64,000 nt of DNA. It comes from Candidatus Aenigmatarchaeota archaeon (lineage in GTDB: Archaea; Aenigmatarchaeota; Aenigmatarchaeia; QMZP01; QMZT01). The notes below the pieces were generated by a model, which saw nothing but the letters and a program-made list of their open reading frames with translations, did no database searches and was not told where the DNA came from. Where the stretch lies: positions 1,338 through 65,337 of the forward strand of contig JBGPQP010000006.1 of the NCBI GenBank assembly GCA_041489155.1, written 5' to 3'. This document shows, one piece after another, positions 3,201-52,400 of this stretch. Position 1 is the first letter of the stretch; each line of letters opens with the position of its first letter. A program made the translations under genes and the position numbers.

Positions 3201-4453
3201 GGTTCAGGAACACAACTCAGATAGGCAGCGTCAGCGGCTGCCAGGATGACAGCACATGGTATTACACACCTATCTTCAATGAATCCGGATCGTGGACCAT
3301 AAGGCTCGAGGTTTCTGACTCGTATGCCACCTCTTACGACGAGATGACCGTAACCATACTCAACACCAACAGGCCGCCCGAGCAGATATACCCGATACAG
3401 AACCAGACATGGAACATGAACACGGTCGACAGAAACATAATCCTTTCCTACAACTTCCGCGACCTGGATAATGAAAACAGCGTTACTAACGACGACAACA
3501 ACCTGACGATAAATTACATCGGGTCGCAGCATGTTACAGTTCTTATAGACAACCAGGTGCCTCCTGTGACGATATCGTCTTCTGTCTGGACAGGGAAAGC
3601 CATCGTTACTCTAACGCCGCAGAGTGACTGGTACGGCATCGACACCATAGTCTTCAACGTAAGTGATTCCCAGTATGCCGTGAGCAGCAACAACATAACG
3701 CTCAACGTCAGCTACACGGAAACCCAGACGCAGACGATCGTCCAGCAGACCGGCGGAGGTGGTGGAGGTGGCGGTGCGATGGGAACGAAAATCGCCTCTC
3801 TTACGATTACCGTTTCCCCGATGAAGAGGGTAACCTCGTATAACGCGACGCTTGCAAACGTGACTTTCAGGAACTCGGGCGAAGTCCCGCTTAATGGCAT
3901 TTATCTTGAAGCGTATGTGAAGGAAAGCGACGAGATTTCAGCCAGCCTTGACAGAAGCTACATAAGCCAGCTTGGTCTGGAGAACAGCGTCAATGCCACG
4001 CTCAAACTGACCACATACGAGCTGAAGAAGGACGAATACGAAATAAAGCTTACGGGCCGCGTGACCGATCCGAAATTCAACCAGTCGAGCACAATATACA
4101 TAAGGCCCGTCTTCAACGAGACGAAACTCGAGGAGAGGATACAGCTTGCCAGAGACCTCTTCGAGGACAATCCCGAATGCCTCGACCTCATGGAGCTGAT
4201 ACTGCAGGCAGAGAAGGAGCTCGGCAAGGCCAACCTCGAGACGGCGAAGGACCTGACGGAGACTGCGCTTGAAAACTGTCGAGACATAATAAAATACGCC
4301 AACACGACTGCAAGGAAGGTCACGCCGGAAGGCGAGAAATTGCCGCTGAACGAAATACTGATAGTTATGCTTACGATCTCACTTTTCACTATACTTGCTT
4401 ATCTCTGGCTCGAGAGGAGAGCCGAGACTAATAAGGGCAAGGCGAAAGCATGA
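221..4453 (+). CDS. Giant secreted, C-terminally membrane-anchored surface protein with about 7 cadherin-like repeats and extreme N-glycosylation sequon density
   Basis: 1410-aa ORF with ATG at 221. N-terminal hydrophobic segment. Recurring domain-boundary motifs VNDRP, INDRP, INDPP, VNDPP (x2), LNHAP and TNRPP resemble cadherin DxNDxP linkers. A Gly8 linker is followed by a beta-rich segment, a helical segment and a C-terminal TM (ILIVMLTISLFTILAYLWL) with a basic tail. NxS/T occurs roughly every 10 residues. Confidence 0.85.
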   Translation: MKGNAGLYVAVVILVALALLILRPISQITGFFIATTSGTTSLGTWDITDPLAGAYYVYADGSQLGSGPGATTLAVFYANYSNITTGEAINGSNIECNITFNLSGSWTSPARMWFNASAKLYTYNRTFASRSNYYWNTTCYGSAQGYDNLNVINNITVTNTPAGIYVPLPSTNCTEDEICRYNFSQRCYDIDDIDENNLTYGYIAGTEFAGFSINTISGNVTINITTDAGCGSFKVALTVQDPIAEGGNANKSFVVNAVNDRPIMGSVPNASYQNATLTYDINATDEETPGNLTFNFTVLSCYRPFNNQHWSAGNCSDIIIINQTTGIVSRGSVFQNHEVGNYTVNFTATDAGDNLTGTNIPPYSFLANQTDSRTVNLTIIDINDRPLISTVPNQLWTQNQSVSLVIYASDIDNGTLVFSAATLYRNLSAYFNTSLFPISLNETIYLDNGTSLGNATMNFTPVLNGQVGNYTVNISVYDGRANGTYSLLVNFTVTNINDPPNISFSCGNYAVEGLEYACSIGQNTTDPDNFPSYVPYTDSVNSTLAYSLNFTYCNKTFNASDTNCSLFAINSTTGLINYTGPLRSDSGNYTLNISVTDGGGLTTSMLFNLTLVPDYMPNITTGVSSQITTQGQAFLLEINATDLDNATDTLTFRTQTYYTNGTLISPTKFNITTNLTSWPPGPATGVMNYTNVSNSMVGNYTTRVIVNDTWGREDYVTFNLSVYNVNDPPVLNFSCLNYTYEATYYAASRYECYAGQNTSDPDQQTPYGDNLTYSMTFITGPQLFSINSTIGIINFSAANDSWANNTLNFTYVVNITVNDSGGLTNSQTLNITVFAVNDPPVMNMSNTSITANSTFFENLSAGITDEENNAPFIFNVTFVNCSKTNTSDTNCSLFTINQTTGVISFYALEKDMGNYTLNVTARDSGNTTQPYNATGSRLVTFRLLPLNHAPVADIMLLFDQNWNWIPSSIFSENQTVIFSFDASDADSDTLYCTWFRNTTQIGSVSGCQDDSTWYYTPIFNESGSWTIRLEVSDSYATSYDEMTVTILNTNRPPEQIYPIQNQTWNMNTVDRNIILSYNFRDLDNENSVTNDDNNLTINYIGSQHVTVLIDNQVPPVTISSSVWTGKAIVTLTPQSDWYGIDTIVFNVSDSQYAVSSNNITLNVSYTETQTQTIVQQTGGGGGGGGAMGTKIASLTITVSPMKRVTSYNATLANVTFRNSGEVPLNGIYLEAYVKESDEISASLDRSYISQLGLENSVNATLKLTTYELKKDEYEIKLTGRVTDPKFNQSSTIYIRPVFNETKLEERIQLARDLFEDNPECLDLMELILQAEKELGKANLETAKDLTETALENCRDIIKYANTTARKVTPEGEKLPLNEILIVMLTISLFTILAYLWLERRAETNKGKAKA

Positions 4454-4648: not shown

Positions 4649-4796
4649 GCTGGGATGGCGGAATGGTAACGCGCTAGCCTGGAATAAGCCTTTTGACCAA
4701 AAGGCTTAAGCGAAAACCAGCAGCTCACGCTTGCATTTGGTTTGCCAGACAGCTAGTCTCCTTACGGGGTCCTGGGTTCGAATCCCAGTCCCAGCG
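4649..4796 (+). tRNA. tRNA-Ser (GGA) with a 66-nt canonical 37/38 intron (4685-4750)
   Basis: Acceptor GCUGGGA/UCCCAGC, D arm with GG, anticodon stem CUAGC/GCUAG, loop CUGGAA|A, long variable arm CUCC-UUAC-GGGG, T arm CUGGG-UUCGAAU-CCCAG, discriminator G. The intron forms a strict BHB: CUGG:CCAG central helix, bulges AA|U and AC|A, distal helix AAGCC:GGUUU. No encoded CCA. Confidence 0.9.
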
Positions 4797-5586: not shown

Positions 5587-6375
5587 ATGAGCAAAGGCCT
5601 CATCACCGTAAGCACGGACTGGCACGTGATAAGGGAAGGCGACAGGGCCCAGAACTCCACGGACCCGAGGCTGCTGAGGGAGTATCTGAAATGGGGCTAT
5701 CTGGATACGGACAAGGTAATACTCGGGGGAGACATATTTGACCTTGGCAAATCCACCATTGATAAAATAATGTACGGTGACGGCGCATATGTCGATCTGA
5801 TAAAACTTATTCAAAACTATATGAAATACAAAAAGCTGGAATACATCGCCGGCAACCATGACTGGGAAATGACCAAAGAATGGAAACTGAATGACAGGTT
5901 GTATATCCCTGAACAGAAGGTTATGGTGATGCACGGCCATCAGCTTGATGCCAACCCGGGCTTTTCAGGCAAATGCATAGAAAGGACTCTGCTTAAAGTT
6001 CTGGCCTTTCTGGAAAGAACTGTGTGGGAAGACATAGACCAGATTCCTTCTTTCATGGAGAAAAATTTTCACATCGACGCCGAGAGCAGGGAGAAATTTT
6101 TCACCAACTGTCAAAACTACATGAACGCAAGAGGCAGAACAATTCCGAGAAAGAAACATCCGGTCGATACCCTTTTCGTGGGACACATACACGGAAACCC
6201 TGAAACAAGGGCTCTGGAAGATGGCAGAAAAATAGTCAATTGTGGCTGCAACGTCAAAGTTTGCCTGACCAACAAGAAACCTGAAGATGAGCCTGGCAGT
6301 TACAGGTCCGATTATGTGGTACTTGACACCAGAACAGGAGAAATAACCGCGAAGGACATGAGGGACGGTTTTTAA
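5587..6375 (+). CDS. Calcineurin-like metallophosphoesterase
   Basis: Motifs GGDIFDLG, GNHD, HGH and GHIH in canonical order. Confidence 0.75.
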   Translation: MSKGLITVSTDWHVIREGDRAQNSTDPRLLREYLKWGYLDTDKVILGGDIFDLGKSTIDKIMYGDGAYVDLIKLIQNYMKYKKLEYIAGNHDWEMTKEWKLNDRLYIPEQKVMVMHGHQLDANPGFSGKCIERTLLKVLAFLERTVWEDIDQIPSFMEKNFHIDAESREKFFTNCQNYMNARGRTIPRKKHPVDTLFVGHIHGNPETRALEDGRKIVNCGCNVKVCLTNKKPEDEPGSYRSDYVVLDTRTGEITAKDMRDGF

Positions 6376-8526
6376 TTATTTTTCCTTAATGTGGGAAGGT
6401 TTCGATGCCGCCTGCTGAGCCTTTTCTTTTCCCGCTGGGGCTTTCTCTTCCTTTGTCGCAGCTGTCTTTGCACCTTCTTTTGTCGCGTCACCCTTCCTGT
6501 TCACGAAGCCGCATTTGACGCAGAGCTTCCATGGACGGCGCTTGAACTGCTTCACCTGGATGATGTTGAGGCCGCAAGTGGGGCATTTCTCGTCCGTCGC
6601 GGATACGTAGCCTTTCTGCGGCAGCGGGAAGCTCTGCCTGCACTTCGGGTAATTGGAGCAGCCGACGAAATGCTTCTTGGTAATGTGCGAGCGGATTATG
6701 CGCAGCTCGCCCTTGCATGCGGGGCATACGCCGACAAAATGAGCCATCTCCTGGAATTCCTTCACGCCTTCCTTGAGTTCGGAGCCTATGTGCATCTCGT
6801 GCTCCTTGAACTTCTGGAGCGTTTTCTCCAGCTCTTTCCTCGCGTTCCCGACGATTTCATCCCTCTTCCTTTTACCCTCCTGGATGAGCTCGATCTCATG
6901 GTCAAAAGTCTTGGTCAGCTCTTCGGAGATTATCTCAGGGCAGTGCTTCTCGAGCGCTTCGATTACCGCAGAGCCAAGCGCAGTCACCCTTATCGACTTG
7001 TCCTTTATGTATTCCCTGTCGTAAAGCGTCTGGAGTATTTGCGCGCGCGTCGCTTTCGTGCCCAGGTTCTTGTCCTCCATGGTCTTGAGGATCGAGGCCT
7101 GAGAGTAGCGGTCGGGCGGCGTTGTCTCCTTCTCGTTGAGCTTTACATCAGGCTTGTCGACGTTCTGGCCTTGCGTCATCTCGGGCAGAAGCTGCTCCTT
7201 GAACTTCGCGTACCTGCCGTAGAATTCCATCCACTCGGGTTTTATGGTTGTTGCGCCGAAGGCCTTGAATTTCTCGCCATTGACGTCTATCGCCACGGTC
7301 ACCCTTTCGCGTAGCGCGGGATCGGCGAACGTCGAGAGGAATCTCCTGACTATGATGTCGTAGATGTTCTGCTGGTACTTGCCGAGCTTCGCAGGCTTAA
7401 GGCCGGTCGGGAAAACGCTTGGGTGGGCAGGGTCGTCCTTGTCTCCCTCGATCGGGATGAACTTGCCCTTCTTGATCAGCCTGCCGCAGAGCGCGGCGTA
7501 TTCGCCCTGCTCCGCCAGCTTTTCAATTATTGCCCTGAGGCCCAGCTTCTGGGGCAGCTTCTGGCTAGACGTCCTCGGATAGGAAATAAGCGCATGCTCG
7601 TAGAGATTCTGGGCTATGTCCAGCGTCATCTTCGGGGAATAGCCGAAGTTGTTGAACGCCTCGCGCTGCAGCGTGGTGAGGTCGAAAGGCGTCGGCGGGA
7701 GCTGCTTTACAATCTTCTTTTCGATCTCGTGAACGGCTGCTTTCTTGCCGGTGCATCTCTTTAGGATGGTCTCGGCCTGCCCCTTTTCCCAGAATTTATC
7801 GGCTTCATGGAGCGCGGTTATCTTCTTGCCGTTCACCAGGCCATGGAGCTCGAGCGTCCAGAACAGCTCTGGCACGAATCTCTCGATTTCCCGTTCGCGA
7901 TCCTCCAGGATCTTCAGCGTCGGGCCCTGAACTCTTCCGATGGACAATGTCCAGTAGCCATTCGCCTTTTCCAGCGCCAGCGTAAGGGCGCGGGAAAGGT
8001 TGATGCCCCACAGGAAATCAAGCATGTGCCTTGTCAGGCCTGCCTCTATCTGGGGGAAATCGAGATGAGGCGTTGCGTTGGCATAAGATTCAAGTATGTC
8101 CTTGTCCGTAAGCGTGGAGAATTTCATGCGCCTGCCGTCTTTCGCGTTGCATATGAAGCGAATGATGTTGTAGGCGATGGTCGAGCCTTCGATGTCGTAG
8201 TCGCATGCAGAAACGAAATCAGTCGCGCCCTTCGCGAGTTTGGCTATGTTCGCGTAGTATTTCTGGGCCCATAAATTGTCCTTGTCGTCGAATGTCGGCC
8301 GCCATTCGACGTCGAAGACGGGATACGTCCATTTCGCCTTCTTTCCTTTCTCGTCCAGAACGAAAAGATGTCCGACAGCAGGGACGACAACTATGTCCTT
8401 GCCGCCATGCCTCAGCCTGAAGTATATCACGCTCTTGCCACTCTTTTCTACCTTGCCTTCGGCAAGCGCGTAAGCAATTCTTTCCGCTGCGCTGGGCTTT
8501 TCCGCTATGACGAGCGTATAGGACAT
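6376..8526 (-). CDS. topA: Type IA DNA topoisomerase with C-terminal zinc ribbons and a Lys-rich tail
   Basis: N-terminal TOPRIM (LVIAEKPS...DYDIEGS), central topo IA core, and CPACKG...CSNYPKC...CPTCG...CVKCG zinc ribbons. Confidence 0.9.
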   Translation of the reverse strand: MSYTLVIAEKPSAAERIAYALAEGKVEKSGKSVIYFRLRHGGKDIVVVPAVGHLFVLDEKGKKAKWTYPVFDVEWRPTFDDKDNLWAQKYYANIAKLAKGATDFVSACDYDIEGSTIAYNIIRFICNAKDGRRMKFSTLTDKDILESYANATPHLDFPQIEAGLTRHMLDFLWGINLSRALTLALEKANGYWTLSIGRVQGPTLKILEDREREIERFVPELFWTLELHGLVNGKKITALHEADKFWEKGQAETILKRCTGKKAAVHEIEKKIVKQLPPTPFDLTTLQREAFNNFGYSPKMTLDIAQNLYEHALISYPRTSSQKLPQKLGLRAIIEKLAEQGEYAALCGRLIKKGKFIPIEGDKDDPAHPSVFPTGLKPAKLGKYQQNIYDIIVRRFLSTFADPALRERVTVAIDVNGEKFKAFGATTIKPEWMEFYGRYAKFKEQLLPEMTQGQNVDKPDVKLNEKETTPPDRYSQASILKTMEDKNLGTKATRAQILQTLYDREYIKDKSIRVTALGSAVIEALEKHCPEIISEELTKTFDHEIELIQEGKRKRDEIVGNARKELEKTLQKFKEHEMHIGSELKEGVKEFQEMAHFVGVCPACKGELRIIRSHITKKHFVGCSNYPKCRQSFPLPQKGYVSATDEKCPTCGLNIIQVKQFKRRPWKLCVKCGFVNRKGDATKEGAKTAATKEEKAPAGKEKAQQAASKPSHIKEK

Positions 8527-8890: not shown

Positions 8891-9049
8891 TGCGGGAGCA
8901 GGGATTCGAACCCTGGAACACATGCCTCGCGCTTCGCTAAGCGAATGCTTCGCAAAGGCGCCCTAAGTGAGCAGGTCTTGAGCATCGACATCATCTTGAA
9001 TCAGAGTTCAAGACCATTCTACCGCCTTTGACCACTTGGCTACCCCCGC
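8891..9049 (-). tRNA. Class II tRNA, probably tRNA-Leu (CAA), 159 nt with two insertions (about 8983-9017 in the anticodon arm, about 8922-8962 in the variable arm)
   Basis: Acceptor GCGGGGG/CUCCCGC, discriminator A, Leu-type D arm GCC-AAGUGGUCAAA-GGC, intact T arm CAGGG-UUCGAAU-CCCUG, loop CUCAAGA followed by CCUGC, variable arm U-CAC-UUAG...GUG-UUC. Exact splice sites were not resolved; no strict BHB was found by hand. Confidence 0.6.
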
Positions 9050-21503: not shown

Positions 21504-21599
21504 AGCGGGGTGGAGCAGCCTGGAGTGCTCGCTGGGCCCATAACCCAGAGGTCGATGGTTCAAAACCTTAATGAAAAGGTGAAAATCCATCCCCCGCTA
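21504..21599 (+). tRNA. Initiator tRNA-Met (CAU) with a 21-nt T-loop (59/60) intron at 21565-21585
   Basis: A1:U72, anticodon stem CUGGG/CCCAG (three G:C), loop CCCAUAA (C33). T stem GAUGG/CCAUC. The insertion forms a strict BHB: UUCA:UGAA, bulges AA|A and AA|U, distal helix CCUU:AAGG. The spliced T-loop is UUCAAAU. Confidence 0.9.
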
Positions 21600-27288: not shown

Positions 27289-27452
27289 AGCCCCGGGCGA
27301 GGATTGAACTCGCGACCTTTCGCTTTTTGTCGGCAGAATATTCGTTTTCTGCCTAAGCTCTTTCCTAAAGAGCTTATACCAAGCGAACGCTCTGTAGGGA
27401 TTGAAGCAGGTTTCACCTGCTTCGCTCGAAATTACCACTGAGCTACCGAGGC
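27289..27452 (-). tRNA. tRNA-Thr (GGU) with two insertions: D-region (about 27393-27432, 40 nt) and canonical 37/38 (27325-27376, 52 nt)
   Basis: Acceptor GCCUCGG/CCGGGGC (one G.U), D stem GCUC/GAGC, anticodon arm UUCGC-UUGGUA|..|A-GCGAA, variable AGGUC, T arm GCGAG-UUCAAUC-CUCGC, discriminator U. The spliced length is 72 nt. The D-region boundary is ambiguous because GAGCG is duplicated. Confidence 0.8.
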
Positions 27453-36771: not shown

Positions 36772-36999
36772 TCAACTGACTTCCCTGTACAGGCCGATGT
36801 CCACCACGAAGATGATTATGCCAACTACCACCAGGGTCGCGATGAAGAGCACTATGGTTATGAGTGGGTGGAGATTGAAGAATGAATAGACCACCAGGTA
36901 TACGAGCAGCAGAATGGCAACGATGCAGAGTATTGTGATCAGCAACTTCAGCTTTCTGCTGAACTCCTTCACATGGACTTCGTCGGGCTTGAACGCCAT
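36772..36999 (-). CDS. 75-aa two-TM membrane protein
   Basis: ATG 36999 and two long hydrophobic helices. The upstream leader region carries the repeated hairpins. Confidence 0.55.
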   Translation of the reverse strand: MAFKPDEVHVKEFSRKLKLLITILCIVAILLLVYLVVYSFFNLHPLITIVLFIATLVVVGIIIFVVDIGLYREVS

Positions 37000-37019
37000 A
37001 TATATCGCTTTTTTCTGCT

Positions 37020-37042
37020 TAGGCTCTTTCCTAAAGAGCTTA
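37020..37042. repeat. Palindromic hairpin element, copy B (taggctcttt-cct-aaagagctta)
   Basis: 10-bp arms with one mismatch. Together with its flanks (37011-37060) it is near-identical to the anticodon-arm/intron junction of tRNA-Thr (27325-27385). Confidence 0.8.
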
Positions 37043-37084
37043 TTGGAAGCAAATGCAGCGGAGCGGAGTGAAGCTCCTTTCTGA

Positions 37085-37111
37085 TTAAGCTCTTTCCTGA
37101 AAAGAGCTTAA
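37085..37111. repeat. Palindromic hairpin element, copy C (ttaagctcttt-cctga-aaagagcttaa)
   Basis: 11-bp perfect arms, the same arm sequence as copy B and as the tRNA-Thr intron hairpin (27354-27376). Confidence 0.8.
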
Positions 37112-37185
37112 GCTTATTATATATTTAAATTAGTTTAACATAAATAATTGTCATCTCAACGTATGTCAAACTATATAAATTAGAA

Positions 37186-38010
37186 ATGTCAAAGAGGCTG
37201 TATATGCATTCGCTACCTGTATTTGATCTGGAGGGGAATGAAAAGGAGAAGATTACGTTACCCGCCAGTTTCTCGGAAAGGGTCAGGCAGGACATAATAC
37301 AGAAGGCGGTTGTCGCCGAGCAGAGCAAGCTCAGGCAGCCTTACGGAACAGACCCGCTTGCGGGCCACAGGACTTCCGCCCATTACTGGGGCCTGAGAGG
37401 CGCAAGGGATTCGCAAATGAACAGGGAAATGGCGAGGATGAAGAGGATCCACAATCAAGGCAACCTGAACATGACTGCGAGGTTCAACCCGCGAACCGTG
37501 AAAGGGCGAAGGACGCATCCGCCGAAGGTCGAAAAGATATGGGCGCTCAAAATCAACAAGAAAGAACACATCAAGGCGCTTAAAGCCGCGCTGGCCGCGA
37601 CGCTTGCAAAAGATCTTGTTGTAAAAAGGGGCCATTATATTGACGATGTGAAGCATGTCCCTCTCGTTCTCGAGGATGATTTCCAGAAGATAAGCAGGAC
37701 TTCTGAAGCGATAAAGATTCTCGAGAAGTTTGGCTTCGCGAAGGAAATCGAGAGATGCAAGGAGAAGAAGGTCCGCGCGGGCAGGGGCAAGATGAGGGGA
37801 AGGAGATACAAAACGAAGAAAGGGCCCATTGTTGTGATAGCGAAGGATGAGGGCATACGCAAGGCCATAGAGAACCTGCTGGGTTTTGATGTTTATCTCG
37901 CAAAAGAACTCAATGTCAGTTCGCTGGCGCCGGGCACGCAGCCGGGAAGGCTGGCGATATTCACCAAGTCAGCGATAAAGGAGCTGGGTTTCGATGGAAA
38001 AGCAAAGTAA
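37186..38010 (+). CDS. rpl4: Ribosomal protein uL4
   Basis: 274 aa, typical archaeal L4 sequence. First gene of the cluster; no uL3 upstream. Confidence 0.9.
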   Translation: MSKRLYMHSLPVFDLEGNEKEKITLPASFSERVRQDIIQKAVVAEQSKLRQPYGTDPLAGHRTSAHYWGLRGARDSQMNREMARMKRIHNQGNLNMTARFNPRTVKGRRTHPPKVEKIWALKINKKEHIKALKAALAATLAKDLVVKRGHYIDDVKHVPLVLEDDFQKISRTSEAIKILEKFGFAKEIERCKEKKVRAGRGKMRGRRYKTKKGPIVVIAKDEGIRKAIENLLGFDVYLAKELNVSSLAPGTQPGRLAIFTKSAIKELGFDGKAK

Positions 38011-38326
38011 GGGTAACGCTGTTAAAGCTGCTCCGGCAGCGAAGGAAGCGAAAGCCAGGGAGGAGAAGAGCGCCTGGGACGTCCTCGTTTACCCGCACCT
38101 TACCGAAAAGTCGATGAACATGGTCGAGCTGGAAAACAAGCTCGTTTTCATAGTCAGAAAGAAGGCGAACAAAGGGGAGATCAAAGAAGCGATTGAAAAG
38201 GAATTTGAAGTGAAGGTCGAATGGGTAAAGACGGAGATAACGACCCGCGGCCAGAAAAAGGCGTATGTGAAGATAAGCCCGGAGTTCTCGGCGGCGGACA
38301 TCGCCTCGAAACTCGGGATGATATAA
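37994..38326 (+). CDS. rpl23: Ribosomal protein uL23 with a K/A-rich N-terminal extension
   Basis: WDVLVYPHLTEKSMNMVE.ENKLVFIV...A.K.EIK.AIEKEFEVKV..V.T. Confidence 0.9.
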   Translation: MEKQSKGNAVKAAPAAKEAKAREEKSAWDVLVYPHLTEKSMNMVELENKLVFIVRKKANKGEIKEAIEKEFEVKVEWVKTEITTRGQKKAYVKISPEFSAADIASKLGMI

Positions 38327-38347
38327 AACTGATATCATGGTGATGCG

Positions 38348-39019
38348 ATGGGAAAAAGGATAAGGGCGCAAAGGGTCGGGAAGGGAAGCAATGCTTACCG
38401 CGTCCCGCCAAGAGGAAGGATGCTTTTTGTCACTTACAAGAACGTCGATGGCGACGTGGTTGACATAGTAGACGACCCGGGGAGGAATGCGCCGCTTGCC
38501 AAGGTGAAATACTCGGACGGAACGATAAGCTATCTTATAGCTCCGAACGGAGTAAAGGTCGGGGACAAGAGCGATTTTGTCGTACCCCTTTCGAACATCC
38601 CGGTCGGCGCCGAGATTTTCGGCATAGAGATTTACCCCCATTCCGGCCCCAAGATGTGCAACACTCCTGGTTCTTTCGCAATCCTTGTTTCAAAAACAAA
38701 GGACAACTGCGTCGTCCAGCTCCCTTCGAAAAAAACGAAGGAGGTCAACCAGCAGTGCAGGGCAAGCCTCGGCAGGCCGGCTGGCGATGGTCTCAGGGAA
38801 AAACCGTGGATGAAGGCAGGCAAGAGATTTTACGCCATGCGCAGGAGAGGCAAGATATACCCGAGAACCTCCGGCGTGGCGATGAACGCGGTCTGCCACC
38901 CGTTCGGCGGCCCGACAAAGCCCGGCACGCCCAAGACCGTGAGCAGGCATGCACCGCCTGGCGCGAAGGTAGGCGCATGGGGTGCCAGAAGAACCGGCAG
39001 GAGGAGAGGCAAGACATAA
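38348..39019 (+). CDS. rpl2: Ribosomal protein uL2
   Basis: MGKRIRAQRVGKGS..., ...GVAMNAVCHPFGG. Confidence 0.92.
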   Translation: MGKRIRAQRVGKGSNAYRVPPRGRMLFVTYKNVDGDVVDIVDDPGRNAPLAKVKYSDGTISYLIAPNGVKVGDKSDFVVPLSNIPVGAEIFGIEIYPHSGPKMCNTPGSFAILVSKTKDNCVVQLPSKKTKEVNQQCRASLGRPAGDGLREKPWMKAGKRFYAMRRRGKIYPRTSGVAMNAVCHPFGGPTKPGTPKTVSRHAPPGAKVGAWGARRTGRRRGKT

Positions 39020-39049
39020 AAATAGGGGAAACAAGCTAATGGTGATTAA

Positions 39050-39430
39050 ATGGCGAAGTTCGAGTTCCGCGGGAAAAGCATCGAGGAAATAAAGGCCATG
39101 AACCTAGAGGAATTCAGCCTTATGATTCCCTCGCGTCAGAGGAGAAGCCTTAAGCGCGGCCTCCCGGAAAAGCAGAAGAAGCTGCTGGAGAAGATAAGGA
39201 AGAACCCGAAGAAATACCACCGCACGCACTCGAGGGAGATGGTCATACTGCCCGAGATGGTTGGCGTCAAAATAGGCGTTTACAACGGTAAGGAATACCT
39301 GGCGCTTGAAATCAAGCCGGAGATGCTCGGCCACAGGCTCGGCGAATTCGTGCTCACCAGGAAGAATGTGAAACATTCCGCCCCTGGTTTCGGCGCAACC
39401 AGATCTTCGAAGTTCGTGCCATTGAAGTGA
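39050..39430 (+). CDS. rps19: Ribosomal protein uS19
   Basis: RRSLKRG...[21 protein letters not shown]...GHRLGEF..TR. Confidence 0.92.
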
Positions 39431-39819
39431 TGTCTATGCCCAAATACGCCCTTAACCTTGACCAGAAAAAATCTGCAAAAGCATATGGCAGGTCTCTTAA
39501 CATATCCACCAAGAGCTCTGTCCTTATGTGCAGGAAGGTTTCAGGCATGAACGTGCAGAAAGCGAAGCAGCTGCTCGAAGGCATGACCGAGGGCAAGAGG
39601 GACGTAGACGGCAAGTATTATTCCAACGTTTCGAGTGAGATGCTGAGGCTGCTGAAAGCCGCGGAAGCCAACGCCGAGTTCAAGGGCCTCGACACCAGCA
39701 GGCTCGTTGTTTTCGCCTCGGCCCACAAAGGCTTCACGTTTTTCCGGCCGAGGAGAACCAAGCTGAAGAGGACGCAGAGGAAAATCACGAACCTGCAGAT
39801 AGTGCTGCAGCAGAAATGA
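39430..39819 (+). CDS. rpl22: Ribosomal protein uL22
   Basis: ATG 39430 overlaps the rps19 stop; the track start is GTG 39427. A.AYGRSLNISTK.S..... pattern. Confidence 0.88.
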   Translation: MSMPKYALNLDQKKSAKAYGRSLNISTKSSVLMCRKVSGMNVQKAKQLLEGMTEGKRDVDGKYYSNVSSEMLRLLKAAEANAEFKGLDTSRLVVFASAHKGFTFFRPRRTKLKRTQRKITNLQIVLQQK

Positions 39820-39832
39820 TGCGGAGGAAATT

Positions 39833-40489
39833 ATGTTGCTCAAAAAATTCTTCGTTGACTATTCCGTAAGGAAGATGAAGATAGAGGACTTCGTAAAGAA
39901 GTACTTCCCTGACGAGAGCTATTCCAGGGTCGACCTGGAAAGGACGCCGCTTGGCGTCAAGGTCGTGATATACACGGACAAACCAGGGAGAATAATCGGA
40001 GCGGGCGGGAGAAAGATAAACGAGATGACCGACAGGCTGAAGATGGAATTCAAGCTTGAGAACCCGCAGGTCGACGTGAAGTCGATAGACCATCCGGACC
40101 TAGACCCCAAGATAATGGCCAAGAGGATAAAGGCCGCACTGGAGAAGGGCTACAATTACAAGAAGATAGGCAACATCATGATGAAGAGGATCATGGACGC
40201 AGGAGCGGTCGGAGTCGAAATCGTTATAGCCGGCAAGCTCGGCGGCTCAAAGGGGAGGACGGGCAAGTTCATACAAGGTTACATGAAGCACTGCGGGCAG
40301 CCCGCGAAGGAGCTCGTTGACTACGGCTTCGAGGAGGCCGAAACAAAGCCTGGCAAGATAGGCATAAAGGTGAAGATAATGAAGTCCGTCCCGGTAATAG
40401 CGTACGACAAGCCGGTGGTTGAAGCGGCTGAAACCAAGGAAAAGGGGGAAAAGGTTAAAAGCAGGGAAACCAAGAATAAAGAGGAATAG
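39833..40489 (+). CDS. rps3: Ribosomal protein uS3
   Basis: KH domain IGAGGRKINEMT; 218 aa. Confidence 0.92.
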   Translation: MLLKKFFVDYSVRKMKIEDFVKKYFPDESYSRVDLERTPLGVKVVIYTDKPGRIIGAGGRKINEMTDRLKMEFKLENPQVDVKSIDHPDLDPKIMAKRIKAALEKGYNYKKIGNIMMKRIMDAGAVGVEIVIAGKLGGSKGRTGKFIQGYMKHCGQPAKELVDYGFEEAETKPGKIGIKVKIMKSVPVIAYDKPVVEAAETKEKGEKVKSRETKNKEE

Positions 40490-40498
40490 GTTCTGATT

Positions 40499-40702
40499 AT
40501 GGCGATTCTCAGGTCAAAAGACATAAGGAAAATGGACGACAAGGAGCTCGAAAAGCAGATAAGAGACCTGAATCTTGAGCTTGCCAAGGAAAGGGCGAAC
40601 ATACACATCGGGGCTTCTGTGACTTCTCCTGGCAGAATCAAAGAGGTCAGAAGGACCATAGCCAGGATAAAGACCATTAAAAACGAGAAAAGGAAAAAAT
40701 GA
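40499..40702 (+). CDS. rpl29: Ribosomal protein uL29
   Basis: 67 aa. LR....EL..QI.DLN.EL pattern. Confidence 0.88.
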   Translation: MAILRSKDIRKMDDKELEKQIRDLNLELAKERANIHIGASVTSPGRIKEVRRTIARIKTIKNEKRKK

Positions 40703-40790
40703 AAGCGGATACGCAATATTCGCAAGGGTCTGGAAATGCTGTTTTTTCACGAGGCATAGTGTTTCAAATAGAGGAGGTTGGAATCAGGGG

Positions 40791-41096
40791 ATGACTGAAA
40801 TCTGCCCTAACTGCGGCCTTCCGAATGACATCTGCGCCTGCGAAACCATCGCCAAAGAGGAGCAGAAGGTGCGGGTGAGTTCGATAAAGAAGAGGTTCGG
40901 CAAGACCGTGACGCTGATAGAAGGCATAAGCAACGACGTTGACATAAAAAACGTTGTGAAAGAGCTCAAGACGAAGCTTGCCTGCGGCGGCACCATGAAG
41001 GACGGCATAATCGAACTGCAGGGAGACCACAGGAAGAAGATAAGGGACATTCTTGTGAAAATAGGCTTCCCGGGCGAGAAAATCGAGGTTTCCTAA
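40791..41096 (+). CDS. Translation initiation factor aIF1 (SUI1)
   Basis: N-terminal zinc knuckle CPNCG...CAC; TLIEGI...LK.LKTKLACGGT. Confidence 0.88.
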   Translation: MTEICPNCGLPNDICACETIAKEEQKVRVSSIKKRFGKTVTLIEGISNDVDIKNVVKELKTKLACGGTMKDGIIELQGDHRKKIRDILVKIGFPGEKIEVS

Positions 41097-41156
41097 ATCC
41101 GGAAACCGCATCCGGGGATAGCGAGATTTTTACAATCTTGAGTTTCCATATTCTTT

Positions 41157-41435
41157 ATGAGAACCCCAGAAAACCTCGTCAGGCACGAACTGATCGGCCT
41201 GAAAGCGAAGGTCGTGGAGAGCTCCAACCCGAAAAACATCGGCGTCGCGGGCAGGGTCGTTGACGAGACCAGGAACATGCTAATCATAGAAAAAGCGGAT
41301 GGCAAAGAGGCAAGGCTCGTCAAGGAGCAGAACGTTTTTTCTTTCGAACTGGGCCAGACGAGGGTCAGGGTGGACGGGAAAATCCTCGTGGCAAGGCCCG
41401 AGGACAGGATAAAGAAGAAGTTCAAGAGATGGTAA
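41157..41435 (+). CDS. rnp1: RNase P protein component 1 (Rpp29/Pop4)
   Basis: LIGLKAKVVESSNP..IG..G.VVDETRNML.I; 92 aa; usual position between L29/SUI1 and S17. Confidence 0.85.
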   Translation: MRTPENLVRHELIGLKAKVVESSNPKNIGVAGRVVDETRNMLIIEKADGKEARLVKEQNVFSFELGQTRVRVDGKILVARPEDRIKKKFKRW

Positions 41436-41544
41436 TAGCGAAATTACACTTTTATAAATATTGTTATTAGTATTATCTCCATACTACCTCTCCATATATA
41501 TTTAAATAATAGATTCATCAATTATTGGATTACAGGCGAAGATT

Positions 41545-41895
41545 ATGAAAGCTGCAAAAGCGAAGGCGAAGGACATTGGCCTGGGTTTGCCCGAGCCGAA
41601 GGAAGCCTGCTCTGACCATAAGTGCGCGTGGCACGGCAAGCTGCCGGTGCGCGGCAGGGTCTTCAGAGGCACGGTGAAATCGGCGAAGTCGAAAAATACC
41701 GTAATTGTCGAATGGGGCTATCACAGGTTCATAAACAAGTACGAAAGGTTCGAGAGGCGCAAGTCCCGCATCGTGGCGCACAATCCTCCCTGCATGAAGG
41801 CGAAGGAAGGCGACAAGGTTACCATCGCCGAAACCAGACCGCTTTCAAAGACGAAGCATTTTGTCGTGGTTAATGTTGAGAGGGGAATGAAATGA
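41545..41895 (+). CDS. rps17: Ribosomal protein uS17
   Basis: G.V.S.K..NT..V.....H....Y.R.E.R.S...AHNP.C...K.GD.V.I.E.RPLSKTK. Confidence 0.9.
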   Translation: MKAAKAKAKDIGLGLPEPKEACSDHKCAWHGKLPVRGRVFRGTVKSAKSKNTVIVEWGYHRFINKYERFERRKSRIVAHNPPCMKAKEGDKVTIAETRPLSKTKHFVVVNVERGMK

Positions 41896-42290
41896 GAGGC
41901 TTATCCTCAAAGATCACGTATGGCTTGATGACCAAGTCCCAGCTCAGGTGCGCAGACAACAGCGGGGCAAAGATACTCGAGATAATAGCGGTCATGGGCG
42001 CAAAAGGAAGGAAAAGGATGCTCCCGAAAGCGGGAGTGGGAAGCCTTGTCTCCTGCCGCGTGTACAGCGGCGAGGAGAAGGTAAGGCACCAAGTCTTCCG
42101 CGCTGTCATAATAAGGCAGAAAAGGGAGTTTCGAAGGGTCGACGGCATCAGAATCCAGTTCGAAGACAACGCAGCCGTCATAGTCGACGAGAAAGGCGAC
42201 CCCAAGGGGACGCAGATAAAAGGGCCTGTCGCGAAGGAGGCAGTCGAGAGGTTCCCGACTGTCGGCAAAATCGCAACGATAGTGGTATGA
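41892..42290 (+). CDS. rpl14: Ribosomal protein uL14
   Basis: L.CADNSGAK.LEII...G; 132 aa. Confidence 0.92.
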   Translation: MRGLSSKITYGLMTKSQLRCADNSGAKILEIIAVMGAKGRKRMLPKAGVGSLVSCRVYSGEEKVRHQVFRAVIIRQKREFRRVDGIRIQFEDNAAVIVDEKGDPKGTQIKGPVAKEAVERFPTVGKIATIVV

Positions 42291-42291
42291 T

Positions 42292-42735
42292 ATGAAAACA
42301 TGGTCAAAAAAATGGGTTTCAAGCTCGCAACCCCGCAAGCAGAGGAAATACAGGTACAATGCTCCAATGCATGTGAGGCAGAAATTCGTTTCAGCCCACC
42401 TTGCCGAAGCCCTGAGGAACAGATTCGGCAAACGCTCGCTTTCTTTGAGAAAGGGCGATGAGGTCAAGGTAATGCGCGGCCACAAAAGGGGCTACAGGGG
42501 AAAGATTGACCACGTTGACCTTAAAAAAAGCAAAGTATACATAGAAGGTTATAATTTCAAAAAGGTCGACGGCTCTGAAATCATGAAATCTATCCATCCG
42601 TCTAACCTTATCATTATCGAGCCCAAGATGGACGACAAGAGAAGGCAGATGATTATAGAAAGGTCGAGGGGCTCGAGAAAGAGCGAAAAGGCAGAGAAAA
42701 CGCAGGCAGAAACCAAGGAGAAGAAAGGTGAATGA
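42292..42735 (+). CDS. rpl24: Ribosomal protein uL24 with a basic/acidic C-terminal extension
   Basis: KOW motif LRKGDEVKVMRGHKRG..GKI. Confidence 0.9.
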   Translation: MKTWSKKWVSSSQPRKQRKYRYNAPMHVRQKFVSAHLAEALRNRFGKRSLSLRKGDEVKVMRGHKRGYRGKIDHVDLKKSKVYIEGYNFKKVDGSEIMKSIHPSNLIIIEPKMDDKRRQMIIERSRGSRKSEKAEKTQAETKEKKGE

Positions 42736-43415
42736 TCATGCACGTAAAGCGTTACACGATACCCAAATACTGGAAGGTGAAGAAGAAGGCAAACAAATTC
42801 GTGGTGGCTCCGAGACCAGGACCTCACAAAAAATACGAGTCCATCCCTCTTCTCGTCGTTCTCAGGGACGTTTTGAAGGTATGCGCCGATGCAGGCGAAG
42901 CGAGAAGCGTAATCAAGAAAGGCGAAATTCTTGTTGATAAAAGGGCAAGGAAGGACACGAACTATCCCGTCGGCTTCATGGACGTCATCGAGATACAGAA
43001 GATGCACAAGTTCTACAGGGTCATTGTAGACAAGCACGGCCTTGCGCTTCATGAGATAAAAAACGAAGAAGCAGGCAAGAAGCTGTGCAGGATACAGCAA
43101 AAAAGAAAGGTGAAGGGAGGCATGATACAGCTCAACCTTCATGACGGCAGGAACGTTCTGACGGACAAGAATGATTACAGGCCGAATGACTCGGTGCTCA
43201 TCGAGCTTCCGGACCAGAAAATACTGCAGCACTTCAGTTTCGACAAGGATGTACCTGCAATCATAATCGCAGGCAAAAACATCGGGGTACACGGCAAGGT
43301 GAAGGAAATATTCCAGAGGAAGACCATGCTTGAAAGCAGCAGGGTCATTCTGCAGACCAAGGACGGAGACATAGAAACCGTAAAGGAATACGTGCTGGTC
43401 GGTGAAATCAAATGA
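42732..43415 (+). CDS. rps4e: Ribosomal protein eS4
   Basis: HVKRYTIPKYWKV...KFVV.PRPGPH; 227 aa. Confidence 0.9.
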   Translation: MIMHVKRYTIPKYWKVKKKANKFVVAPRPGPHKKYESIPLLVVLRDVLKVCADAGEARSVIKKGEILVDKRARKDTNYPVGFMDVIEIQKMHKFYRVIVDKHGLALHEIKNEEAGKKLCRIQQKRKVKGGMIQLNLHDGRNVLTDKNDYRPNDSVLIELPDQKILQHFSFDKDVPAIIIAGKNIGVHGKVKEIFQRKTMLESSRVILQTKDGDIETVKEYVLVGEIK

Positions 43416-43921
43416 ATCCCATGAGAGAGATACGCCTTGAGAAGGTTACCATCAACATAGGTGCAGGAGAAGCAGGGCCCAAACTCGAAATGGCCAAGAA
43501 GCTGCTTGAAAAACTGAGCGGCACGAAGGTCGTTGTTACTTCGACCCGCAAGCGCTCGACCTTCGGCGTCGCCAAGAACAGGCCGATCGGCGTGAAGGTA
43601 ACGCTGCGCGGCGAGAAGGCGAAGACGTTTCTCGCCAGCGCGCTGAAAGCGAACGAGAACAGGCTGAAGCCGAACCAGTTCGACAGCAGCGGCAATTTCT
43701 CGCTGGGCATAAGGGAATACATAGACCTGCCCGGGATTAAATACGACCCGGAGATAGGGATAATGGGCATGGATGTCTGCGTAACGCTCATAAGGCCGGG
43801 CTACAGCATAAGCCGGAAGAAAATAAGGCCGAAAAGCATAGGCAAGGCCCACAGGATAACGGCGGAGGAAGCGAAAGAGTGGGTGCAGAAGGAATTCAGC
43901 GTAAGGATTGCTGAAGAATGA
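43412..43921 (+). CDS. rpl5: Ribosomal protein uL5
   Basis: [16 protein letters not shown]...; 169 aa. Confidence 0.92.
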
Positions 43922-43937
43922 GCGAAAGGTGTTGAAC

Positions 43938-44159
43938 ATGAGTTTCGAAAATGCCAAAAAGCAGATTGAAGGCAAACCGATAAAATTAGCAAGATTCATG
44001 AAGTTCAACAAAGCGAAGGGCAGAAAATTCGGGCGGGGAGCGAAGCCATGCAGGAGATGCGGCAAAACCGAGGGAGTGATACACAAATACGGCCTCTGCT
44101 ACTGCAGGCAGTGCTTCAGGGAAGTGGCGAGGGAACTGGGCTTTGAAAAATATGAATGA
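43938..44159 (+). CDS. rps14: Ribosomal protein uS14 (zinc type)
   Basis: ATG 43938 with AAAGGUG 6 nt upstream; the track start is TTG 43908. CRRCG...CRQCFRE. Confidence 0.85.
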
Positions 44160-44557
44160 GGTTTATGTTTATGAAACACGACAATCTATCCGACATGTTC
44201 ACGGTAATAAAAAACTCCGAGCAGAACGGCGGTAAGGAATGCGTGGTTCCTAGCTCGAGCATAATAAAGGAAGTGCTCAAAATCATGCAGAAGAACAAAT
44301 ACATAGGCTCGTTCGAGTTCATAGACGACGGCAGGAGCGGGAAGTTCAAGGTGGAACTGCTCGGCAGGATAAACAACTGCGGGCCGATAAGGCCGAGGAC
44401 GTACATCACAAAAGACGAATTCATCAGGTGGGAGAAAAGATTCCTGCCTTCTGTTAACGTGGGAATCCTGTTCATAACGACGCCGAAAGGCATAACCGAC
44501 CACAGAAACGCCAAGAAAGAGAAGACCGGGGGCGCTTTGCTCGGCTACATATATTAG
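44156..44557 (+). CDS. rps8: Ribosomal protein uS8
   Basis: [13 protein letters not shown]...; C-terminal GG.LLGYIY. Confidence 0.9.
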
Positions 44558-44565
44558 GTGGAAAC

Positions 44566-44829
44566 ATGACGCTGGAAAATGAAATCAAAGACGCCATGAA
44601 GGATAAGAAACTGGTGATGGGCAGCAACAGGATTTTCGGCGGCATCAAGCAGGAAGCAATAAAATACGTCATATGCTCAAGCAACTGCAGGGAGGATGCG
44701 CTTAACGACCTTAACTATTACAGCAGGAACTTCGGCATCGAGATAAAGAAGTTCGCTGGCAACTCGAGGCAGCTCGGAGAAATATGCGGAAAACCTTTCA
44801 ACATCATGCTGCTGGGCGTAAAGAAATAA
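44566..44829 (+). CDS. rpl30e: Ribosomal protein eL30
   Basis: 87 aa, L7Ae/L30e fold pattern (K.KKLVMGSN......K....KYVI.SSNC....). Followed by NusA-S12-S7-EF2, as in the archaeal str-like operon. Confidence 0.8.
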   Translation: MTLENEIKDAMKDKKLVMGSNRIFGGIKQEAIKYVICSSNCREDALNDLNYYSRNFGIEIKKFAGNSRQLGEICGKPFNIMLLGVKK

Positions 44830-44839
44830 GCTGGTATGG

Positions 44840-45244
44840 ATGACCATAAAGCTGACGACCGAACATGTGCGCCTCGTCGGGACGTTCGAAAGAATCGCCG
44901 GCGTCCACGTGAAGGACTGCGTTATGGACGAGGACACGGTTTACTTCCTGATCGAACCCGGGAGGATGGGCAGGGCGATAGGAAGGGACGGCAGCAACAT
45001 CCGCAGCGTCTCGAATGCGCTCGGCAAGAAGGTAAAGGTATTCGAATACGCGGACACGCCTGAAAAACTTGTCCGCAACATAGTACCGACCATAAACTCG
45101 TTCGAGATGAGCAACGAGGCCATAACGATCTCGGTGCCTGTGTCCGACAGGTCGATTGTCATAGGCAAGAACGGCAAGAACATAAAAATGATGAGGCAGT
45201 TCCTCGACAGGCACTTCAATATCAAGAATTTAAGGCTGAAATAG
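44840..45244 (+). CDS. nusA: Archaeal NusA-like protein (two KH domains)
   Basis: GRAIGRDGSNIRSV and IVIGKNGKNIKMM GxxG KH motifs; 134 aa. Confidence 0.88.
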   Translation: MTIKLTTEHVRLVGTFERIAGVHVKDCVMDEDTVYFLIEPGRMGRAIGRDGSNIRSVSNALGKKVKVFEYADTPEKLVRNIVPTINSFEMSNEAITISVPVSDRSIVIGKNGKNIKMMRQFLDRHFNIKNLRLK

Positions 45245-48632: not shown

Positions 48633-48772
48633 GGGGCCGTGGTGTAGCTAAGCCCTTTCACGGCAGCTTTCGCTTGCACGAAAGCGCTTGCGGAAAACGT
48701 GAATGGCTCTGCAATGGTCTAGCATTCAAGCTTCGGGAGCTTGCGACCTGAGTTCGAATCTCAGCGGCCCCA
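48633..48772 (+). tRNA. tRNA-Pro (CGG) with a 65-nt D-loop intron (48650-48714)
   Basis: Acceptor GGGGCCG/CGGCCCC, D stem GUGU/GCAU, anticodon arm CAAGC-UUCGGGA-GCUUG, T arm CUGAG-UUCGAAU-CUCAG, discriminator A. BHB-like fold: GUAG:CUGC central helix, bulges CU|A and AA|U, distal helix AGCC:GGCU. The spliced D-loop is AGCUUGGUCUA. Confidence 0.85.
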
Positions 48773-52273: not shown

Positions 52274-52287
52274 GATCGATAGCTATT

Positions 52288-52326
52288 GGGGTTAAAACAA
52301 TAACCCCCTCTTTTTCTTTTTTATTT
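52288..52326 (+). terminator. Hairpin plus T-tract terminator after the S-layer gene
   Basis: GGGGUUA-AAACAA-UAACCCC, followed by ctctttttcttttttatttt. Confidence 0.55.
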
Positions 52327-52327
52327 T

Positions 52328-52350
52328 AAACCTTTTTCAGAAAAAGGTTT
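52328..52350. terminator. Second perfect hairpin between convergent genes
   Basis: AAACCUUUUU-CAG-AAAAAGGUUU (10-bp arms) flanked by A/T runs on both strands. Confidence 0.4.
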
Positions 52351-52400
52351 ATCAAAAAATGAATTTATGTCACAAAGGCTTCAGCGAAACATGTATTTAT

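Follow-up and report, generated by a model that had tools for sequence, protein, structure and literature searches.

Introduction

REP/BIME elements are extragenic palindromes of 20-40 nt that lie after genes in many copies per genome, with lineage-specific variants, and RAYT, a Y1 HUH transposase, is often flanked by REPs. To our knowledge, REPs have not been found in tRNA or rRNA genes as spliced introns. The recognition of archaeal bulge-helix-bulge (BHB) introns is structural, and we know of no sequence requirement for it. In the MALAT1/ENE system, an A-rich tract lies beside a U:A-rich stem at an RNA processing site, which in MALAT1 adjoins a tRNA-like structure; ENE helices combine two U-rich strands with one A-rich strand (U.A-U).

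Ever since intron transposition came to light in Thermoproteales, the question of how tRNA introns spread and change place in archaeal genomes has stood open. Intron gain was placed at the DNA level in the 2010 study, as summarised in a 2014 review that still calls the mechanism unknown (PMC4090602). The intrastrand triplex motifs BoxC, PIT and TM_ECO of prokaryotic genomes were described by Holder et al. 2015 (PMC4666352) and, as that paper cites it, by Hoyne and Maher 2000.

Here we describe a structured cassette found in the window, by which we mean the whole 64,000-nt stretch of Candidatus Aenigmatarchaeota DNA that was analysed. It consists of a 5-bp foot (UAAGC/GCUUA), an upper stem of 5-6 bp, a 3-nt linker (AGC or AUC) and a mirrored purine tail, and a long form adds a second hairpin, GGAG...CUUCC. 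The closest described systems are the Thermoproteales introns in phenomenon, BoxC/TM_ECO in sequence architecture and REP in genomic habit. In contrast to the Thermoproteales introns, the cassette belongs to the DPANN superphylum, the part shared by its copies is a defined stretch at the 5' end, marked by a fixed foot and a mirrored tail, and it also occurs in 16S rRNA and, abundantly, outside RNA genes at gene ends; no report of cassette-like copies in 16S or at gene ends was found for Thermoproteales introns in the literature searched. Compared with archaeal BHB introns in general, about 30 nt of cassette sequence are conserved across phyla.

Like BoxC, PIT and TM_ECO, the cassette is a short, multi-copy, highly conserved extragenic repeat, and like them it has the order pyrimidine - purine - reverse-Hoogsteen purine (class II), with class III/IV on the other strand, some inverted pairs, loci rearranged between close relatives and no associated transposase (PMC4666352). 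However, TM_ECO is rich in G/C, lacks an additional Watson-Crick foot, shows neither an orientation bias nor a constant distance to genes, and is not found in introns, whereas the DPANN cassette is rich in A/U, carries a 5-bp foot around which the linker must pass, keeps strictly to one orientation and starts at splice sites or gene ends; the triplex was measured for TM_ECO, while that of the cassette is predicted from co-variation. The cassette shares with REP/BIME the character of a multi-copy extragenic palindrome, but no RAYT/IS200-like gene was seen near the DPANN copies (97 loci, ~4 kb) and no conserved 5' tetranucleotide stands outside the element. As in MALAT1/ENE, a genomically encoded A-rich tract adjoins a U:A-rich stem where RNA is processed; unlike in ENE, the sense strand of the cassette has one U-rich and two A-rich blocks, and only its antisense strand would give U.A-U triples. 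The cassette differs from Thermoproteales introns, BoxC/TM_ECO and REP alike: it unites a fixed foot and a strict orientation with a start at the splice site or gene end and with residence in tRNA and rRNA genes.

Results

Hairpin modules in the window

A preliminary description of the window had placed four copies of a hairpin module in a tRNA-Ser intron, a tRNA-Thr intron and, as copies B and C, in the spacer beside rpl4, and all four were confirmed at these sites. The pattern TAAGCYYTTT-N2-10-AAARRGCYTA matched only at 4685-4708 (+), 27354-27376 (-), 37020-37042 (-) and 37086-37110 (-). Because the hairpin is palindromic, the four sites gave seven strand-matches, against none in 100 dinucleotide shuffles of the window. 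The tail RKC-R(G)AAA followed each of the four copies, as had been written. A variant hairpin with a TAAAC/GUUUA foot (UAAACCUUUUU-CAG-AAAAAGGUUUA) was found at 52327..52359 (+; R1 model 32.3 bits), its hairpin proper at 52327-52351, between convergent genes; it is possibly a distant family member, and its membership is uncertain.

The rpl4 spacer holds a long form and a short form

A covariance model, R1, with 65 positions was built from nine foreign long forms, excluding the window and its ortholog. This model, of the kind proposed in the preliminary description and made from other genomes only, matched 37043-37110 end to end, with all 65 positions aligned, GCUUCCAA included (72.9 bits, E=1.3e-13, E-values being rough owing to a short calibration). 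Hairpin 1 of copy C (UAAGCUCUUU-UCAGG-AAAGAGCUUA; 37086..37110, -) was an exact pattern match, was recovered by folding and occupied R1 positions 1-25. It was followed by the linker AUC and the purine tail AGAAA (37078..37085, -), which mirrors the purine arm AAAGA, and then by the second hairpin of the long form, GGAGC...GCUUCC and AA (37043..37077, -), identified by the R1 match and by alignment with foreign long forms. Copy B (37011..37042, -) had the short form UAAGCUCUUU-AGG-AAAGAGCCUA with linker AGC and tail AGAAAA, and was found both by the pattern and by R1 (30.1 bits); its stem carried one A.C mismatch. The R1 scores of the Ser, B and Thr copies came through the first hairpin. By its sequence, therefore, copy C with the 35-nt spacer behind it is a long form, and copy B, directly after, is a short form.

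The flank GCAUUUGCUUCCAA beside copy B, which had been likened to an anticodon arm, was found as quoted, but it corresponds to positions 34-65 of R1 and is the stretch now assigned to the second hairpin (37043..37077), so that the likeness is coincidental. With it had come the idea that the spacer is a relic of a tRNA-Trp gene; the spacer might then be a pseudogene fragment, or a split-tRNA segment with an intron-like leader. CUUCCAA plus an intron-type module agrees with this, since it looks like an anticodon loop in which CCA occupies 34-36 and an intron interrupts 37/38, and leaders of split tRNAs are known to resemble introns (PMC4090602). However, GCUUCCAA forms the 3' side of the second hairpin and is conserved there; long forms occur at about 30 other loci, GCUUCCAA ends long forms in D-arm, T-loop and intergenic contexts of other genomes, and the whole 68 nt match the long-form model. 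The real, intact tRNA-Trp(CCA) gene of a relative (L013) has a module at 37/38, yet its 5' half is unlike and unrelated to the spacer. That no acceptor, D or T arm lies near the spacer copies had already been stated and held true: ARAGORN found no tRNA in the spacer, Rfam tRNA had no match in 36900-37250 at E<=1, and no T-arm motif was found near the copies. We regard this explanation, which the contexts contradict, as extremely improbable.

Other RNA structures were rejected for the spacer as well. A split or tri-split tRNA piece was dismissed, with no T-arm motifs or partner halves in the window, and a C/D-box or K-turn RNA, with no boxes and no Rfam match in the spacer. At copies B and C there were no flanking exons and no central 4-bp helix of a BHB, and no partner able to pair with the 4 nt preceding each copy was found. 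RNAfold preferred long-range C-B pairing for the 151-nt stretch, while the local hairpins won when the fold began at the module; as a processing stem the C-B pairing was discarded, having one 3-nt and one 1-nt bulge and not a BHB.

A TATA-like box, TTTAAATATATA (37118..37129, -), a putative promoter read from sequence only, lies 7 nt upstream of copy C. The box and 17 bases upstream of it were kept in the orthologous spacers of two relatives, and the distance from box to module was 5-11 nt in the three genomes. Downstream of both copies is a small ORF for a two-helix membrane protein of 75 aa (36772..36999, -), kept in L002 and L089, whose ATG stands 11 nt beyond the end of copy B. If transcription begins about 23-25 nt past the TATA box, the spacing seen at the tRNA genes of the window, its start is predicted within hairpin C. 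The box being so near the module, the transcript may start inside hairpin C, and in that case perhaps only copy B is intact in the leader of the small ORF. A structured 5' leader, one of the roles suggested before, is thus possible for the spacer copies; lying between a conserved TATA box and the start of a small gene, they would be at most part of its leader. No sign of a tRNA-related function was seen for them. The module as a portable TATA box or promoter was considered and, as a general account of the copies, rejected: the spacing suits some A/T-only copies, but the CUCUUU arms of the window make poor TATA boxes. Synteny links the region to contig JAPLVC010000006 of an Aenigmatarchaeota MAG (loci L076, L002 and L090), and the rpl4 protein of the window was also found on a JGI metagenome contig.

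Cassettes begin tRNA introns of the window

The Ser and Thr copies start exactly at the start of a 37/38 intron. In the tRNA-Ser(GGA) intron (4685..4750, +; R1 36.8 bits), the module (4685-4716) has CUUUU/AAAAG arms and the tail GAAAA; behind it stands a second hairpin, which belongs to the CCAG..AGC..GCU subtype. The Ser pre-tRNA folded as a proper BHB with a CUGG/CCAG central helix and the bulges AA/U and AC/A (the slash marking the junction), the hairpin lying directly beyond the 5' bulge and the first U of the module being the third bulge nucleotide. After in-silico splicing, tRNA-Ser was recovered by ARAGORN.

In the tRNA-Thr(GGU) intron (27325..27376, -), the module occupies 27345-27376 (R1 28.1 bits), and its tail serves as the 5' arm of the second hairpin, GGCAGAA/UUCUGCC, in which the orthologous intron L090 shows a compensatory change. 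Here the fold gave a relaxed BHB, without the canonical 3-nt 3' bulge, in which the hairpin again adjoins the 5' bulge and the first U of the module is its third nucleotide. A third case is the D-arm intron of tRNA-Pro(CGG) (48649..48706, +), which is a decayed long form by alignment with the intact intron of L076: it begins UAAGCCCUUU and retains the 5' arm UAAGCCCUUUCAC and the closing 3' arm, while the internal purine arm is lost. ARAGORN found none of the five tRNA genes in the window, and Rfam at its gathering threshold found three of the five.

A repeat family common in DPANN archaea

R1 gave at least 137 matches in at least 97 archaeal loci, about 32 of them long forms. In a scan with one genome per species, using the module and the first four tail bases as query, at least 117 stretches were found in at least 49 archaeal assemblies, mostly DPANN. 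Among the matches listed were Aenigmatarchaeota, Woesearchaeota, Nanoarchaeota, Nanohalarchaeota, Micrarchaeia, unclassified archaea and 3 Methanosarcinales. The second hairpin, GGAG(N)C...G(N)CUUC-C, followed the tail in about 30 copies and often ended in CCAA. In an alignment of 39 long forms fitted to R1, hairpin 1 was 100% paired with 4 covarying pairs, and the hairpin 2 pairs GGAG(C)/(G)CUUC were 98.5% kept with one covarying pair.

No Rfam 15 family covered the module in the window and 12 loci at E<=1, where tRNA and SSU rRNA matched; weak sub-gathering matches off the module came up in three bacterial loci (mir-4782, YrlA, Histone3 and alpha_tmRNA; E 0.36-0.98). All-against-all clustering of ORFs within about 4 kb of the copies in 97 loci gave no protein family present in more than 5 loci, and no transposase was found beside the copies in these loci. 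Viral contigs (IMG/VR) contained no match to the module, and a viral origin was rejected accordingly. Searches of the literature by sequence string and by topic found no description of the motif. Apparently, the repeat is undescribed, and it is common in DPANN.

The distribution also bears on the suggestion that the palindromes are protein-binding sites, that is, operators for a dimeric regulator of the divergent promoters of rpl4 and the small ORF, shared with tRNA genes. Perfect palindromes beside or over the predicted transcription start would suit an operator, as would the TATA-adjacent placement kept in three genomes. Yet more than 140 copies lie in unrelated contexts, many of them inside transcribed RNA genes or over stop codons, which makes a promoter-specific site unlikely; moreover, the arms co-vary for pairing with no single half-site consensus, and the mirrored tail has no two-fold symmetry. 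We consider an operator very unlikely.

Cassettes start at splice sites and gene ends

Contexts of the family members were classified partly by eye. The first base of the module stood directly after GUAGUCUAG in the D-loop, at 37/38, or directly after GGUUCGAA in the T-loop of many tRNAs. When the segment starting at the first base of the module was removed in silico, ARAGORN regained a tRNA in no fewer than 31 of 145 cases; the figure is a minimum, as tRNA genes with several introns are missed, the typing covering single-intron tRNAs and its isotype labels being unreliable. Modules also open mini-introns of 16S rRNA, and in L085 the Rfam SSU match spans the site. For the 16S copies the junctions were read from sequence, unfolded, and in this reading the hairpin is the helix beside the 5' bulge, with the first U as third bulge nucleotide. 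At L056, L066, L076, L101, L105 and L115 a module lies 1-3 nt after a tRNA 3' end.

Protein genes showed the same abutment. A same-strand frame of at least 100 codons ended within 3 nt of the module start in 19 of 136 cases, 13 of these 19 by means of the module's own TAA, compared with 1 of 136 in the mirror control, in which an opposite-strand frame ends at the tail. The distance from the module to the next gene was variable, and the orientation was sense in all tRNA and gene-end contexts inspected. Such strict gene-end anchoring and uniform orientation could mean function and not tolerated insertion.

The cassette could be in the main a functional RNA element of gene ends: a compact, nuclease-resistant hairpin, with or without a triple helix, that sits just behind stop codons and tRNA 3' ends and defines or protects RNA ends or separates cistrons, a role comparable to that of bacterial REP or terminator hairpins or of the MALAT1 triple helix of animals. 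Introns would then have borrowed a ready-made helix, and in the rpl4 spacer the cassette would give structure to the 5' leader of the small ORF. The module is sharply anchored where the upstream unit ends, at a variable distance from the next gene, and its orientation is uniformly sense in the tRNA and gene-end contexts inspected; anchoring and orientation are explained better in this way than by neutral insertion. Near-perfect stems (11 mismatches in 146 modules), conservation across phylum-level lineages, the place beside the TATA box kept in three genomes and the stop of copy B 11 nt before the ATG all point in the same direction. Against it, the hairpin has no U-tract after it, and presence varies at the same site in close relatives (tRNA-Pro trailer, rpl4 spacer). 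A module at an intron start cannot protect exon 1, the predicted transcription start lies inside the hairpin in three orthologous spacers, and the purine-motif triplex is reported to be absent in RNA (PMC4666352). We judge a chiefly functional gene-end element to be rather unlikely.

Two narrower candidates for these sites were rejected. Rich in A/U and trailed by an A tract, with no U-tract, the hairpin is not an intrinsic terminator. An IS200/IS605-type target had been considered for the upstream T at -5, A at -2 and purine at -1, which are explained by stop codons and tRNA loop bases.

Turnover and possible exchange between relatives

The content of the rpl4 spacer differed among relatives: the window has a long form and a short form, L002 a long form only, followed by 85 nt in which the small ORF has its own TATA box, and L089 a short form only. 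The module in the tRNA-Pro trailer was present in L076 and L105 and absent in the window, and L105 carried an extra T-loop intron that begins with a module. Two copies of one genome had a 53-nt palindromic insert nested between the hairpins, and L072 held an inverted pair of long forms. These turnover differences are the marks of a duplicating or recombining repeat.

The sequence homology of the spacer copies to tRNA introns, claimed at the outset, was borne out by pairwise comparison. Copy B and the Thr intron module were identical at 30 of 32 positions. The long form of the window, copy C with its spacer, matched the D-arm intron of tRNA-Pro in the sister genome (L076) at 62 of 68 positions without gaps, and the orthologous spacer copy at 56 of 68. 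Judged from these alignments, the identity pattern fits copy exchange or mobility, the gap behind the exchange reading being small (6 vs 12 mismatches).

In filled-versus-empty comparisons of the tRNA-Pro trailer and T-loop sites, no target-site duplication was seen beyond palindromic-loop effects, and the 3' boundary was fuzzy. The short forms had no terminal inverted repeat at the 3' end. A MITE was rejected for having no target-site duplication and no terminal inverted repeat that defines its ends. The preliminary description had weighed the tRNA connection against a genome-wide REP-like repeat unrelated to tRNAs; the element did prove to be a widespread repeat, yet one that is tightly tied to tRNA and rRNA introns.

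Three-way co-variation of stem and tail

At five variable stem positions, pyrimidines stood on the 5' arm and purines on the 3' arm, and the five bases past the 3-nt linker were the mirror of the purine arm, which is also the positionwise complement of the pyrimidine arm. This mirror rule was obeyed in 57/57 copies of the class TTTTT/AAAAA/AAAAA, 34/36 of CTTTT/AAAAG/GAAAA and 13/15 of TCTTT/AAAGA/AGAAA, these three counts referring to two variable arm positions and the first two tail bases only, and in 22/26 of TTCTT/AAGAA/AAGAA, a class taken from a metagenome scan with C forced at the third arm position and the tail left free. Several classes coexist in one genome, the window having CT (Ser) and TC (Thr, B and C), and tail length tracked arm length, with 5 or 6 nt in long forms.

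In the 39-sequence alignment, tail and 5' arm were complementary in 97.4% of cells, and two-sided changes were seen at all three variable positions (13, 7 and 7 sequences). None of 500 shuffles reached the mirror signal, which fell to zero in slid controls. Modules with other feet also obeyed the rule: CAAGC, TAAAC, TAAAAC, TAACC, UGAG and CGAUU, the last with UUCUUU/AAAGAA/AAGAAA. So did an unrelated cassette that opens a third intron of the 16S gene in L085, UAUACC-UUUCUUUU-CC-AAAAGAAA-GGUAUA-ACC-AAAGAAAA. A generic scan for mirrored tails was confounded by register ambiguity in all-T arms and was informative for arms with an internal C only. The 11 stem mismatches in 146 modules comprised 5 of G.U type against 5 of A.C type, with no strand bias.

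Since the variant classes could represent just a handful of subfamilies, co-variation may have arisen independently in only a modest number of events, roughly 4 to 10. The co-variation, being a property of the sequences, is strong evidence for a constraint and not for a particular structure. The mirror repeat is not explained by any secondary structure and is, in its sequence, the layout of an intrastrand triplex. By the definitions of PMC4666352, class II is the purine motif, here on the sense strand, and class IV the pyrimidine motif, here on the antisense strand. Purine-motif triplexes are stated there not to form in RNA; therefore the sense RNA of a pre-tRNA may not form the triplex, which, if real, would more likely exist in single-stranded DNA or antisense RNA.

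Discussion

We lean towards the view that both spacer hairpins are copies of a duplicative structured cassette, which is exchanged between introns and intergenic sites and tolerated in RNA genes. Copies would spread or convert between sites at the DNA level. Within tRNA and rRNA genes the cassette would be tolerated because its start sits exactly at the 5' splice site, where hairpin 1, in the folds obtained, serves as the helix on the far side of the 5' bulge in a relaxed BHB. With this helix provided, the splicing endonuclease could excise the cassette, and broad-specificity endonucleases are described for DPANN (PMC5829648). Outside RNA genes, the cassette would survive directly after gene ends. 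The three blocks of arm, arm and tail may form an intrastrand triple helix that aids spread, stability or both; such a triplex might stall polymerase and promote rearrangement, as has been reported for bacterial triplex repeats (PMC4666352).

More tentatively, and we think this rather doubtful, the cassette could be the vehicle of intron gain in DPANN: a self-propagating triplex hairpin that lands at the ends or loops of RNA units and is made spliceable by its own hairpin. It would be convertible to a BHB intron because that hairpin gives half of the splice-site structure. If this were true, it would be without precedent as a natural triple-helix motif kept across whole archaeal phyla, and its 3-nt linker would span a 5-bp foot. 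Whatever its role, a real triple helix here would rank among the few natural cases that comparative evidence clearly supports.

For the multiplication and movement of archaeal tRNA introns, the cassette offers a concrete handle, being sharply defined, occurring as introns in RNA genes as well as beyond such genes, and present or absent in sister genomes. It also matters for annotation, as cassette-interrupted tRNA and 16S genes of DPANN are missed or mis-called by standard tools, and a covariance model of the cassette would flag intron starts.

Outside the archaea, a few bacterial repeats also matched the module; a Clostridia/Oscillospiraceae repeat, for which we found no Rfam family and no obvious transposase at the bacterial loci, shares the same 31 nt.

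Introns of rRNA and tRNA genes

At locus L085 (CAYYYJ010000007), from an uncultured archaeon, the 16S rRNA gene at 5934-7782 contained at least three mini-introns, starting near 7154, 7480 and 7572, and each of these three was opened by a hairpin with a mirrored purine tail. The foot of the hairpin was CAAGC in one of them and UAAGC in another, and the third opened with unrelated sequence (UAUACC / UUUCUUUU / AAAAGAAA / tail AAAGAAAA).

The 37/38 intron of a relative's intact tRNA-Trp(CCA) gene (L013 81-136) was a cassette of the Ser subtype, the form carried by the tRNA-Ser intron of the window. Euryarchaeal tRNA-Trp introns are known to contain a C/D-box guide RNA; the Rfam search at E<=1 gave no match to C/D-box families anywhere in the window, and thus there was no sign of such a guide RNA there. 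Four tRNA genes of the window had non-canonical or multiple introns, namely tRNA-Thr with D-loop and 37/38 introns (27289-27452, minus strand), tRNA-Pro with a D-arm intron (48633-48772, plus strand), a tRNA gene with an insertion of about 100 nt (8891-9049, minus strand) and one with a T-loop intron (21504-21599, plus strand). ARAGORN, run on the window, detected none of the four, and Rfam missed tRNA-Thr altogether and scored tRNA-Pro below the gathering threshold.

Nested, inverted and tandem arrangements

Two cassettes of one genome carried a 53-nt palindromic insert (AACTTAACTCAAC...GTTGAGTTAAGTT) between hairpin 1 and hairpin 2 (L084 4207-4260; L105 near 3690-3750, minus strand). This palindrome is possibly another small mobile element, with the A-rich tail of the cassette as its target. 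At L072, two long-form cassettes lay in inverted orientation with 6 nt between them (7325-7394, plus strand; 7401-7479, minus strand), resembling the inverted pairs of REP/TM_ECO elements. Short tandem duplications immediately 3' of the A-rich tail were seen at L007, L016, L022 and L087, for example AAAAACUAAGC twice or AAAACACAAUC at least five times, suggesting slippage or instability at this position.

Matches in bacterial and Methanosarcinales assemblies

A multi-copy repeat of Clostridia/Oscillospiraceae MAGs ended in the cassette's 31 nt (TAAGCTTTTTGAAAAAAGCTTAAGCAAAAA), preceded by a conserved block of about 40 nt (...GGCATGAGGCTGTCGCCTCAAACTCCAC). Among the matches listed, this repeat accounted for L008, L029, L034, L075, L098, L100 and L113, and no Rfam match to it was found. 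The 31 nt held in common may reflect chance, convergence or transfer. Also among the matches listed were modules in Methanosarcina/Methanosarcinales MAG assemblies (L010, L028 and L033), located about 105 nt 3' of a 107-aa ORF and flanked by direct repeats of about 18 nt (CATRTTAATCTCTTTTA). These copies may be DPANN DNA contaminating the bins.

Other features of the window

The ribosomal-protein cluster is unusually rearranged. It begins at rpl4 without rpl3 upstream (window 37186-45000; L001 gene table), and in the gene calls S8 is followed directly by L7Ae, NusA-like KH, S12, S7 and EF-2, with L6-L32e-L19e-L18-S5-L30-L15 absent from that position. Between convergent genes at 52285-52326, just upstream of the TAAAC-variant hairpin, a GGGGUUA-AAACA-AUAACCCC hairpin is followed by two T-rich runs, and this may be a terminator region.
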